Assembly: GCF_963921235.1 (NCBI RefSeq)
Contig: NC_086107.1
Coordinates: 113,276,001 to 113,340,000, forward strand
Direction of reading: 5' to 3'
DNA: 64,000 nucleotides
Origin: Mobula hypostoma
Taxonomy: Eukaryota
Shown piece by piece: positions 19,126-61,099 of the stretch. Numbering within the stretch: position 1 is the first letter of the stretch; every line of letters begins with the position of its first letter. Position numbers and translations under genes: made by a program. Under the pieces are notes generated by a model, which ran no database searches, was not told the origin of the DNA, and worked only from the letters and a program-made list of their open reading frames with translations.

Positions 19126-19185
19126 AGTGTTTCTGGAGCAGGTACCTCGCTTGTGAGAGGAACAGTCCAGCTAATGCTTTTGACT
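19126..19185 (-). other. Putative non-coding exon 1 of the secretin-family gene (5' end inferred from TATA position)
   Basis: Donor ACACT|gtaagt at 19126/19125 in unique sequence, about 80 nt downstream of a TATA box. Exon 2 begins with an acceptor 4 nt before the ATG, so an upstream exon is required. Confidence 0.65.
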
Positions 19186-19207
19186 CCTAAGATCCAACGA
19201 ACTTCCT

Positions 19208-19340
19208 CTATATACTCTCCTGATCTTGAGATCACCGGATATATCCACTCACTCAAAGCCTGCTTCTTTGATTCACTCCCATAATTGACAAGCAAACTGT
19301 CTTTTATCTTGCTCATGGAAGGTCAAGGTTAGATAAACCA
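19208..19340 (-). promoter_or_regulatory. Putative core promoter of the secretin-family gene
   Basis: TATATAG on minus at 19214-19208, GATA motifs (ttatct 19304-19309, agataa 19331-19336), and nuclear-receptor half-site-like aaggtca/tcaaggtta at ~19319-19331. Confidence 0.55.
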
Positions 19341-56090: not shown

Positions 56091-59000
56091 CTGTGGACCG
56101 AGAAGAGCATCAGGGTTATTGCCTGCCTACTGCTGGCGGGGCGGGGTGGGGTTGTAGGCGGCTGGGGTGGATGGCCTGTACGGAAGAACACAAGAACATA
56201 AGAAATGGGAGCAGGAGTCGGCCGTCTGGCCCGTCGAGCCTGCTCCACCATTCAACAAGATCATGGCTGATCTGGCCATGGACTCACCTCAACCTGCTGC
56301 CTTTCCCCCATAACCTTTAATTCCCCTACTATGCAAAAATCTGTCCAACCTTCTCTTGAATATATTTACTGAGGTGGCCTCCATTGCTTCATTGGGCAGA
56401 GAATTCCAGGTTCGCCACTCTCTGGGAAAAGCAGTTCCTCCTCATCTCTGTCCTAAATCTACTCCCCCAAATCTTGAGGCTATGTCCCCTAGTTCTAACC
56501 TACCAGTGGAAACAACTTCCCTGCCTCTATCTGTCCCTTCCATAATTTTATATGTTTCTATAAGATCTCCTTTCATTCTTCTGAATTCTGGCAGGTACAG
56601 TCCCAGGTGACTCAATCCCTCCTCATAGTCTGACCCCCCTCATCTCTGGAATCAGCCTGGTGAACCTCCTCTGCACCACCTCCAAAGCCAGTATATCCTT
56701 CCTCAAGTAAGGAGACCAGAACTGCACACAGTACTCCAGGTGCGACCTCACCAGTACCCTGTATAGTTGTAGTTGTGCTACTGCCTCTGGTACCTCACCA
56801 TTCCCTCACCTTTTACCTTTCTATCACCTGGATGCACGAGGCTGGCGTGGCCCCGCAGCCTCATGAGCACTTGGAGAGCTCGCTGCCTTGATTGTGATAT
56901 GGTGGCGTGGTCTCCGTCCCCTCCTGCACTCACTGACTCCAATCCCCCAACACAGACGCACAAGTCCAATGGAGAACTGAGGGAGCATCGCACCCCGCCC
57001 CCCACACCCCCACGCCTCACTGAGGGAGCAGCCTAGGCCCACACACCTGGCCCACTTACTGAGGAAAACTGCATTCTTTTGTCCCTTAAGGACAGTGATG
57101 GAGCATTTCACTGTGTACTTTAGCAAAGCCCGTGTCTCCCAGCCGCCCAGACAGCAGAACCTACAACCCGGCGCTCTGCTCGCCTGGGATCTTGCTGTGC
57201 ACGCATCTGCATTCACGCCGCCCATGTTACAGTGACAGCCCCGCGGATGCAGCTCGCCGACCGCCCGCAGAGCGGGGTGGTCCCCTGAGGCCGTAGTCTC
57301 CACAGTAATAGAGGCAGGGTCTGCCCTTCCTGTAGCAGGTGGCCAACCCTGGCTGTACCTCCACATGTGGGCTCAGCCAAGGAGGACAGGACTTTCACCA
57401 CAGGCCCCATCACCTGGTTGATGCCGTGACTCCAGAAAGGAGCCACAGTCCTCTCTACTCACAGTCCGCCATTCATTAATACACCAGGGCCCCTTGTCGG
57501 TCTGACTAAGTCAAAAGAAGCAGCCTTAGGAACTACTCTAGGGCAGGGTTCGCAATCATTTTTATGCCATGGACCCTTACCATTAATCGAGGGTCTGTCG
57601 TCCCCAGGTTGAGATTCTCTGCTCTAAAGTCGAACGGTGCCAGAGCACAGAAACAGGCTCTTTGGCCCATTTAGTTCGTGCCTGCCTGGCCTTCTGCCTA
57701 TTCCCATCTACCTGTACCCACAGGCCTCCATCTCTCATCCATCCACCTACCCAACTTCTCCTAAACATCTGCAAATTTGCTGATCAGTGTCTCTAGAAGC
57801 AGGTGCAATGCCCAATTTATACTTCTACGTCAAATGCACACCGTAAGTCCCGCGTACCCTACGCCGCAGGGTGACGTGCACCTCCCCAAAAGTGTAACTC
57901 ACGCATCGCGGCGAAGCAGACCACAACAACTGCGATTGGTCCGCTTGGTAGCATCGCATTTCTGGTTGCTTTTGTCCGCCATGTCTGTACACTGATGCGA
58001 AATGAATGGTTGGAGACAATGAACCAAATTGTCAAATCTACCTGCCTATATCTGAAAATATTTGAAATGCATTTCCTCGTCCATGTCTCTCACAAAGAAA
58101 CTCAACACAGTGGCATAGAAACCCCACCACCAACTAGTGTTGTGGCGGTGAATTGCAGAGCAACGCAGACACAACAACGCATGCTTGCTACGGCGTAGGG
58201 CTACGCATTAGTATAAATCAGGCCTACGGCGTAGCCCGTACGCACAGGCTTAAGAGGGTTGTCGTTGTACCGTCAGAGGTTGGAGGAGTGAAGGGTGGGG
58301 GCAGGGCATCAGGCTGCACTGAACCGGTGACAAAAGAAAGACCGTCCACATCACCGAAACGGAAGGAAAATACAATATACAAAAGCCTGCAGAGGACAGA
58401 AACCTGAAATCAAGACAGAGATGTTGGAAACACTGATCAGACCGGGCAGCATCTGTGGGAGAGAATCAGAGTCCACATCTCAGTTTGTAGAGACTCGGAA
58501 AGATGGGGGGTGGGGGGTAGAAAGTTTTTCGAGCTTGGCCTGTACCTTTGGGTTCAAGGTCTCTGTGTCCTATAGGTCGTCCTATCTGAAGAAGCTTTAG
58601 GAAGCCACGGTGAATGGAAAAAGTATAAAACTGTTTGGGGTCTGATGCTCTTGTTTCTATGTGGGTGATGTTAGTTTTTGTGTATGAGAGAGGGCGTTGG
58701 GGGCTTGATGCTATTGTTGCTGTTCTTTTTCGCAAGGGAGGGGCGTTAGGGTTTGATGTTATTGTCGCTTTTATTGAGAGGGAGGGGGTTTGGGGTTTGA
58801 TGTTCCAGTCACTGTTTTCCGTGTGGGCGACCTGTTAGTTTTTGTGTGAGGGAAGCGTTGGGGGGGGGGTGGGGGCGGGTTTGAGGTTTGATGTTCTAGC
58901 TGCCATTTTCCATGTGGGTTTGGGGTTTGCGAGTTTTGTTTCTTTTTCTTTTTCATGGGGGAGTTGATGATTTTTCTCTCAACAACCCCCATGGCTTTTC

Positions 59001-60962
59001 TGTATTTCACGGCTATCTGGAGAAGGCAAATATCAGGGTTGGATTGCACAGGCATACTTTGACAATGAAATGAACCTCTGGACCTTCAATCACCGCCAAT
59101 TTGCTCTCATCGTCGGTGGCCCAGTGGGCAAAGTGCAGAGAAATCGGAGAGATGTGTTCAGATTCAGGACTGCGAGTTCTGTTCAAGTTCAGTCCTGGTA
59201 CAGGAGACGAGAATGGGCAGTGGACACAGGTCATAACACTGGAGGCAGGGGTGGAACGGGTGAAGGTGCAGACTGGGGGATTCTGGAGAGGCTGAGAATG
59301 GCCAGAGGCTATTTATTTGCGAGGGAGGGGGTTCGGGCACAGAGCAGACCCTCTCACCCAATGATCCTTGTTGCCCTATTTAACCCTCCGAATCACAGGA
59401 CAATTTACAATGACCAATTAACCTACTGTCTTTGGATTGTGGGAGGAAACCAGAGCACCTGGAGAAAACCCACACACACACGGGGAGAACATACAAAGTT
59501 TCTTACAGAGGGCGCCAGAATTGGAGTCTGAACTCCGACGCCCTGAGCTGTAATAGCTACGCTACCGCGGCGACCCATGATTACCGTGGTCATGGAGTTG
59601 GGGTTCTGAGCCATTGGCACAGAAGGGAGCAGGGTTGAGTAGCGTTGAGGGTGGGGTGAGATCAAGTTGGACGGGGAGGAGTTCAGAGAGATTATTGTGT
59701 CCTGGCGGGAAGAGGAGAGAACCAGCAGCACCTAGCCAAGGAGTCAAACCTCTTGAGAGGCAAACGGGGGGGGGGGATTGTAGGAGGTGGAGATGCAAAG
59801 AGGATGGAAATATAAGGGGGTAATAGGGGGCAGTCGGCTGCATCAGGTCAGAGGTCGGGAGGTCGCGGGTCGGCGGTTGCTTCCTACAGAAGGACAAAGT
59901 TCGAGTTGTTGCTTTCCACGATGCTGAGAAGAAAATTCCGAAATTCCGAGACCTATGTGATGATTGGTGTGGACGATACTTTATATTGGTCTCTTTCTGT
60001 GTTTTCTGTTTTGCTGCTGATCGGCGGGTGCGCGATACGTTACTTCTTTTGGGCAAGGGAGAGGTTGGGGATTTGGGGTCTGATATTCTTGTTCATGTCT
60101 GTCCATGTGAGTCATCTGTTAGTTTTTGTTGGGGGGGAAGAGGTTGAGAGTTTAAGGGTTTGATGTTTCAGCTGCTGTATCCATGTCTGGGTGGGAGATC
60201 TGTTAGTTTTTGTGTGAGGGAGAGGTTGGGAGGGGGAGTTGATTTAGGGGTTTGATGTTAACTGCCATGTCTGTGTCTGGGTGGGAGATCTGTTAGATCT
60301 TGTGTGCAAAGGTTGAATAGGTTAGGACTTTATCCCCTGGAGCGTAGAAGAATGAGGGGAGATTTGATAGAGGTATATAAAATTATGATGGGTATAGATA
60401 GAGTGAATGCAAGCAGGCTTTTTCCACTGAGGCAAGGGGAGAAAAGACCCAGAGGACATAGGTTAAGGGTGAAGGGGGAAAAGTTTAAAGGGAACATTGG
60501 GGGGGGGCTTCTTCACACAGAGATGGTGGGAGTATGGAATGAGCTGCCAGATGAAGTGGTAAATGCGGGCTCACTTTTAACATTTAAAAACTTGGACAGG
60601 TACATGGATGAGAGGTGTATGGAAGGATATGGTCCAGGTGCAGGTCAGTGGGACGAGGCAGAAAAATGGTTTGGCACAGCCAAGAAGGGCCAAAGGGCCT
60701 GTTTCTGTGCTGTGATGTTCTATGGTTCTACGAGGGATTGGGAGGGTGGAGTTTGCAAGCATTTTCTTTTTATTTTGTTTTTCTGTATTTCACAGCTACC
60801 TGGAGAAGATGAATTTCAGAGTTGTATTCTGCATACATAACTTTGATAATAAAATAGACCTTTGACCTTTTGAACAAGATGGGCTCTAGTCCAAGGCACA
60901 CAGCCAGTGAGGAACCTTAGTTACATCGTCTTGGCAATTAGGATTCTGGATAAAGATTGTAC

Positions 60963-61099
60963 CTGGCAGGAGTCCTTCTTGCCCTCTGGGTAACCAGCAC
61001 ATATCATCTGGGGCGTGATGGAGTAGGAGTACGCTTCATTACAAACTGACTGATCCACCAGTTTCACGTCCACTTTCTGAAGAACATCTTCTACTGGAC
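60963..61099 (-). CDS. TMPRSS6: Matriptase-2-like protease, penultimate exon (137 nt, phase 1-0): (G)PVEDVLQKVDVKLVDQSVCNEAYSYSITPQMICAGYPEGKKDSCQ
   Basis: Acceptor ttctttcctttcag|, donor CCAG|gtacaa; splices in frame to GDSGGP. LQKVDV..Y.Y..TP.M.CAGY..GKKD.CQ is TMPRSS6-like; Asp189 indicates trypsin-like specificity. Confidence 0.9.

Follow-up and report, generated by a model that had tools for sequence, protein, structure and literature searches.

Secretin (SCT) has been treated as a single gene whose DRD4-CDHR5 locus has been maintained since jawed vertebrates first arose (PMC12714231). In table S3 of that study, drd4 and cdhr5b flank sct in elephant shark, gar, zebrafish and human, and the elephant-shark drd4 ends ~30 kb from sct, indicating that the chondrichthyan ancestor had SCT at this address. 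The same SCT block and a sister block, DRD4rs-CDHR5-IRF5, have been described (PMC5900934). The SCT neighbours HRAS, RASSF7, PHRF1 and EPS8L2 have been assigned to block 6C, 19q13.3-13.4 genes such as EPS8L1 and SCAF1 to block 6D, and the KCTD17/SOX10/RAC2 block to 4A; in the second species of that table, reedfish to judge by the column order, 4A and SH2B1 lie on chromosome 12 (PMC8040251). The origin of SCT has been called enigmatic (PMC2880984), and a catshark transcriptome survey found no secretin (PMC4362833). In this study, we analyzed a 64,000-nucleotide stretch of the Mobula hypostoma genome (contig NC_086107.1, positions 113,276,001 to 113,340,000; the window), which carries a secretin-family gene (the hormone gene) downstream of a TMPRSS6-like protease gene. 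The results showed that the hormone gene is real, conserved in sharks and ray, and unnamed in databases.

The hormone gene spans more than 19 kb, with five exons visible and its final exon beyond the window start. All of its coding exons have AG/GT ends, and the window contains no N, hence no assembly gap, in its 64,000 nt. Exon 3 matched the Pfam family Hormone_2 (PF00123) with an E value of 1.4e-9 and 38.1 bits, against a curated cut-off of 21.2. A HMMER search over 1.84 billion representatives returned 57 matches, one of which, at 76% identity, was S. torazame GCB75653.1. A profile search, in which 3 of 217 candidates scored, all of them sharks, brought in two more, S. canicula LOC119956275 and C. 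maximus LOC144669437. These three orthologues match the ray gene exon for exon and are annotated as hypothetical or uncharacterised. Residues identical to the ray numbered 25-26/34 in exon 3 for the three sharks, compared with 16/29 (basking shark, P0195) and 12/29 (catshark, P0194) in exon 2, 15-16/40 in exon 4 and 11-14/40 in exon 5, which is the pattern of a conserved peptide within a drifting precursor. The S. canicula gene lies on a 27.7 Mb sequence, a length within the catshark microchromosome range (PMC11979771), and the C. maximus gene on a 26.2 Mb sequence. A metagenome scan returned two loci of 86 pattern matches, one a bird-type SCT (L001) and the other a PHI/VIP-type exon (L002), with no shark DNA in that scan.

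Transcription was assessed in a presumed RNA run (X1) of a related organism. Depth was 7.86 in the exon 3 bin, 6.96 in the exon 2 bin and zero in both unique end bins. A single contig of depth 12.5 over exactly 105 and 93 nt yields these two depths and so fits a spliced transcript, the joint itself being absent among the joints listed. Further cover comes from DNA contigs of two other organisms, X22 for exon 2 and X23 for exon 3. Another run, X3, gave no cover of the exons and is given no weight here. A WTV word in one frame of exon 1 recurs in the N-terminal extension of the catshark protein isoform X1, lending slight support to this exon. In alignment, exon 4 takes the place that the second peptide exon holds in bird and tortoise SCT. 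It had no Pfam Hormone_2 match; with this and its low identity to sharks, an intact second hormone in exon 4 was ruled out.

To judge by its sequence, the gene is a member of the secretin/glucagon superfamily: the predicted Hormone_2 peptide follows a basic site, and the signal-like exon 2 is conserved in sharks. The marks H1, D3, F6, T7, Y10, Q16 and L23 have been listed for the PACAP-like subfamily, SCT mostly lacking Y10 and Q16, and the marks G4, F6, F22, S8-D9 and W25-L26 for the GCG-like subfamily of GCG, GLP and GIP (PMC2880984). The ray peptide carries five of the seven PACAP-subfamily marks (H1, D3, F6, T7 and L23, with Y10 and Q16 missing) and also the SCT mark E9, whereas of the GCG-like marks it has only F6, S8 and F22 and is without G4, D9, W25 and L26. 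Positions 1, 3, 4, 7, 8, 9, 11 and 17 are described as invariant in SCT (PMC3084839). Taking the residues at these positions from bird SCT P0143, we found 6/8 kept in the ray, S. torazame and C. maximus and 7/8 in S. canicula; position 4 is Ser instead of the invariant Gly in all four copies. Frog SCT has a GKR amidation/cleavage site directly after its 27-28-residue peptide (PMC3084839). In none of the four species, the ray and the three sharks, is the peptide directly followed by GKR, and exon 4 holds their next dibasic site; the sharks have Gly-Lys a few residues beyond the peptide, which might allow amidation, and the ray has Ala there.

The remainder of the precursor was also compared with SCT. 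The shark precursors aligned collinearly with tortoise SCT all the way from the signal peptide to the tail. Two Cys motifs, drawn as patterns after the alignment had been seen, were confined, among 94 precursors, to tetrapod SCT (8 and 1 proteins) and to the shark proteins, three in number. For ray exon 5, the best of 50 C-terminal regions was that of kingfisher SCT (z 4.3, with 0/200 shuffles as high). In the ESM Atlas, the Secretin cluster came first (0.94, 205 shared features), and a query with the 34-aa exon 3 named the family only. Taken on sequence, the hormone gene probably belongs to the SCT branch.

We then considered its address. Two Trypsin exons on the same strand, both with human TMPRSS6 (PDB 9nrc) as top PDB match, are the nearest upstream coding exons, and their stop lies 36,718 bp from the hormone-gene TATA box; both genes are on the minus strand, the hormone gene downstream. 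These results bear out a sequence-only reading of this DNA, which had placed a matriptase-2-like protease upstream at about 36.7 kb. The penultimate protease exon scored 53.4 bits with TMPRSS6, first of 250 PDB sequences (next 37.3), and the last exon 69.8 bits, first of 453; matriptase (ST14) was absent from the top 60 PDB matches for both. We compared the pair with 357 adjacent domain pairs in 120 database proteins, scored per domain. Summed over both exons, TMPRSS6 reached 123.2 bits and the best TMPRSS9 domain pair 99.6, a lead of 23.6 bits, while shark TMPRSS9 terminal domains reached 83.9 and 87.5. The best TMPRSS9-type domain per exon scored 44.0 bits (penultimate) and 65.8 bits (last); taken by itself, the last exon separates the two proteases poorly (65.8 vs 69.8 bits). 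These per-domain scores replaced a large-database ranking for the last exon that was crowded with TMPRSS9 and had none named TMPRSS6 among the best 120 of 544, because repeated domains add up in such a search. The protease is likely a TMPRSS6 orthologue on these two terminal exons, in a comparison with matriptase and TMPRSS9, with the SEA-CUB-LDLa stem exons beyond 64000; the earlier identification holds as best match. In human, KCTD17 presumably lies directly downstream of TMPRSS6. We found no BTB match in Pfam scans of open reading frames (ORFs) and no KCTD motif in the 55.9 kb of the window downstream of the protease.

The interval between the two genes was scanned for a canonical SCT neighbour. 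Pfam was searched with 271 of the 555 stop-to-stop ORFs of at least 40 aa from 19250-55930 and beyond 61100, the others being masked as window-internal repeats and nearly all of the 271 coming from the interval; exons in shorter ORFs or within masked sequence could escape such scans. Matches were found in 5 of the 271, all transposon-type (Tc1 transposase, RVT_1 and three ALKBH8_N, the last of which we take to be LINE tails), and none in the cadherin, seven-transmembrane (7TM), IRF or BTB families. On the ORFs scanned, DRD4 is missing from the 36.7 kb on the 5' side of the hormone gene, where the next gene is the protease. Within 1-19250, 110 of 272 ORFs were scanned, giving the hormone ORF as a positive control, one zf-RVT and three matches below cut-off. 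A six-frame scan of the whole window with short motifs of KCTD17, cadherin, DRD4, IRF, IL2RB and others gave no credible exon. A strict exon finder was dropped after it recovered 3/4 known exons. Since canonical SCT is at drd4-cdhr5b even in elephant shark, the address of the ray hormone gene differs.

The sequence-only reading had put the gene outside the known secretin neighbourhood and named CDHR5, DRD4 or IRF7 in the flanks as what would overturn this. Its claim stands for the 5' side and for the ORFs scanned in the window, but the 3' flank is beyond the window, and CDHR5 is possible there. Of the human gene orders it gave, the positions of SCT, CDHR5 and DRD4 agree with published coordinates (PMC12714231, S3), as does that of KCTD17 (PMC8040251). 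It also gave KCTD17 and IL2RB as the genes flanking human TMPRSS6. All features are listed in Table 1.

Table 1. Features of the hormone gene, the upstream protease and the interval between them (window positions).
Feature	Coordinates	Strand	Evidence
TATA-like box (TATATA, ~19214) and non-coding exon 1 (donor GTAAGT after 19126)	19126..19214	-	Sequence reading; start site putative
Hormone gene exon 2: ATG at 14101, signal-peptide-like, 29 codons, 93 nt	14013..14105	-	Shark conservation and cover in presumed RNA run
Hormone gene exon 3: 105 nt, phase 2, KR processing site, then secretin-family peptide starting HSDSLFTSELSK	10194..10298	-	Hormone_2 match and shark identity
Hormone gene exon 4: 123 nt, KVKR site, then degenerate His-initiated segment	5886..6008	-	Shark identity, alignment
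Hormone gene exon 5: 123 nt, C-x-x-W motif	293..415	-	Shark identity, kingfisher SCT tail match
Penultimate exon of TMPRSS6-like (matriptase-2-like) protease, 137 nt, AG/GT	60963..61099	-	Pfam Trypsin 9.4e-9; PDB ranking
Last coding exon of protease, with an intact GDSGG catalytic motif and a TAA stop at 55934-55932	55932..56090	-	Pfam Trypsin 3e-14; PDB ranking
Intergenic interval, ~46% self-repeat, only transposon remnants found	19250..55930	.	ORF scan against Pfam

Taken together, branch and address make it somewhat probable that the hormone gene is a separate SCT paralogue of sharks and rays, distinct from the canonical gene of the DRD4-SCT-CDHR5 locus. This paralogue is possibly a whole-genome-duplication ohnologue. 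We tentatively propose a fuller version, which as a whole falls a little short of probable: an SCT ohnologue from a 19q13-type block was kept beside canonical SCT in sharks and rays and lost in bony vertebrates, and encodes a separate hormone with Ser4 and an extended, GKR-less peptide. Its origin would lie in block 6D, the 19q13-type sister of the SCT block, with chromosome fusion and inversion bringing it beside TMPRSS6 (4A). A transcript of six or more exons would encode a signal-peptide precursor of ~190 aa, the length shown by the shark orthologues, with five exons seen in the ray window. From prohormone biology, prohormone convertases would be expected to cut after KR before His1 and at K-x-K-R early in exon 4. 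The product would be a secreted secretin-like peptide of ~35-38 residues, probably not amidated in the ray. The second peptide exon appears to have decayed. Towards the C terminus, the Cys-bearing part of the precursor is similar to that of reptile and bird SCT. The peptide may act through a class B1 Gs-coupled receptor and cyclic AMP, most likely SCTR or a VPAC/GHRHR-type relative; by analogy, gut expression and SCTR are the best guesses, and a separate hormone could possibly have its own receptor preference.

Observations on both address and branch weigh against a separate SCT paralogue. As to address, the neighbour of the hormone gene is of paralogon 4A type, not paralogon 6, and the TMPRSS6 linkage has been observed in one assembly only. 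No canonical shark or ray SCT was among the 57 HMMER or 3 profile matches. The last of these points suits another explanation, which we consider unlikely as a whole: the true SCT orthologue left the vicinity of drd4 in the lineage of the elasmobranchs or of the rays, either singly or together with a cdhr5-irf7 block through a drd4-sct breakpoint, and encodes an ordinary gut secretin acting via SCTR. The SCT-like residues and layout suit such a move as well, as does the room for CDHR5 in the 3' flank, and a single-gene relocation has been proposed in batoids for Mgp1 (PMC8006282). The missing elasmobranch SCT is uninformative, however, because the same searches also missed the canonical elephant-shark SCT, which their libraries may lack. 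An orthologue might also be expected to retrieve the elephant-shark protein, though this is a weak point. The sequence-only reading had offered a translocated SCT or a separate paralogue; both survive, and the evidence leans to the paralogue without deciding between them. Its further suggestion of loss from tetrapods agrees with the profile search, where every scored candidate was a shark, but such negatives are weak.

As to branch, the second ESM Atlas cluster was GIP (0.92, 201 shared features), close to the Secretin cluster, and the recognition value was low (1994). The best PDB peptide match was VIP, with secretin sixth. In a tree of 24 precursors, the best topology joined the gene to proglucagon (86/89, unstarred, with long branches); the grouping with SCT had an approximately unbiased p value (p-AU) of 0.395, those with VIP, PACAP and GHRH had 0.062, 0.078 and 0.086, and no group was rejected. 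This tree leaves out GIP and mammalian single-peptide, frog, coelacanth, fish and elephant-shark SCT. A tree of 42 peptides gave no resolved placement. In a profile of the post-peptide region, bird SCT tails scored at most 1.2 bits, equalled by 3-11 of 100 shuffles and not significant. A secretin-superfamily lineage other than SCT, for example a divergent GIP/GCG-type gene or a local duplicate predating the two rounds of genome duplication (2R), with its own receptor preference, would account for the proglucagon grouping, the GIP cluster and the Ser4 of all four copies. GIP likewise has one peptide with degenerate downstream exons. The absence of the GCG marks beside H1, D3, F6, T7, L23 and E9 argues against such a lineage, as do the Cys motifs shared only with tetrapod SCT, post hoc as those patterns are, and we regard it as improbable.

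Very improbable is a misleading adjacency, in which another matriptase-family paralogue sits at the SCT locus or a mis-join falls within the 36.7 kb, which is rich in repeats. In its favour, the window shows only two exons of the protease, the comparison did not include TMPRSS7, KCTD17 is missing downstream, and no run gave same-species reads (best run share 0.23). Against it, TMPRSS6 leads TMPRSS9, matriptase is outside the top PDB matches for both exons, and the window is free of gaps.

Several other features were observed. In the hormone gene, intron 1 holds two CR1/LINE-type copies in opposite orientation at ~15690-18000, forming a near-perfect inverted repeat of ~2.3 kb. Its introns also hold a 26-bp tandem array at ~14310-14430 and a hexamer-like tandem array of ~330 bp at ~8900-9230. 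Intron 4 contains an open frame of 108 codons in unique sequence at 4069-4392 (+), with a GATase_5 match below cut-off (E 0.00072); it is possibly chance or a relic insert. The intergenic interval holds a 418-codon reverse-transcriptase frame at 43827-45080 (+; E 1.5e-35) and a Tc1-type transposase remnant at 27340-27951 (-). Several imperfect copies of a unit containing TGATGTCAGCA lie 3' of the protease stop at ~55690-55850 (-). Among the other precursors, those of GHRH type in skates (P0158, P0206-P0213) have the GHRH peptide followed by another that is PACAP-like, although GHRH has been described as single-peptide (PMC2880984). Skates and bamboo shark also have divergent 'VIP peptides-like' precursors (P0121, P0124 and P0142), P0121 with three PHI-like repeats.

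Among the matches listed by the literature searches, which did not extend to subscription journals and one of which was crowded with unrelated acronyms, none described a TMPRSS6-linked or second secretin gene. If the gene is a second member of the SCT branch, the ancestral jawed vertebrates would be credited with one more hormone, SCT would have a surviving ohnologue by which to date its origin, and the secretin-type receptors of sharks and rays would have a candidate ligand. As a moved orthologue, the gene would name the missing elasmobranch secretin and break a synteny thought invariant.

Among known systems, bird and reptile SCT (Gopherus XP_030418006, passerine and kingfisher) share with the hormone gene a short signal exon directly before a phase-2 peptide exon of 105 nt, the residues E9 and S11, another segment that starts with His, a tail with Cys and a similar precursor length (184 vs 190 aa). 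The metagenome bird-type SCT (L001, 9412-10500), with its two 105-nt peptide exons, served as an exon-structure control, and by eye exon 3 has the same length and register. Unlike these genes, the hormone gene has Ser4 for Gly4, no GKR after the peptide and a decayed second peptide; overall precursor identity is ~24-31%, and TMPRSS6 lies upstream where SCT has DRD4. Zebrafish si:zfos-2372e4.1, gar LOC107075768 and elephant shark LOC121850333 are likewise unannotated or poorly annotated secretin-family genes of non-tetrapods with a conserved region C-terminal to the peptide (PMC12714231). Fish and chimaera sct, none of which was retrieved by the searches made here, keep the drd4-cdhr5b synteny and are compact genes (the elephant-shark one spans 3.8 kb; PMC12714231), in contrast to the more than 19 kb of the hormone gene. 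The protease exons share with TMPRSS6 (PDB 9nrc), the best match of both, the terminal protease domain and the catalytic serine motif. A precedent is GCRP/GCGL, a peptide gene of the secretin superfamily that arose in 2R, survives in some vertebrates and has been lost from mammals (PMC3679108). GCRP is glucagon-type and HOXC13-linked (PMC3679108), whereas the hormone gene has PACAP/SCT-type residues and another address.

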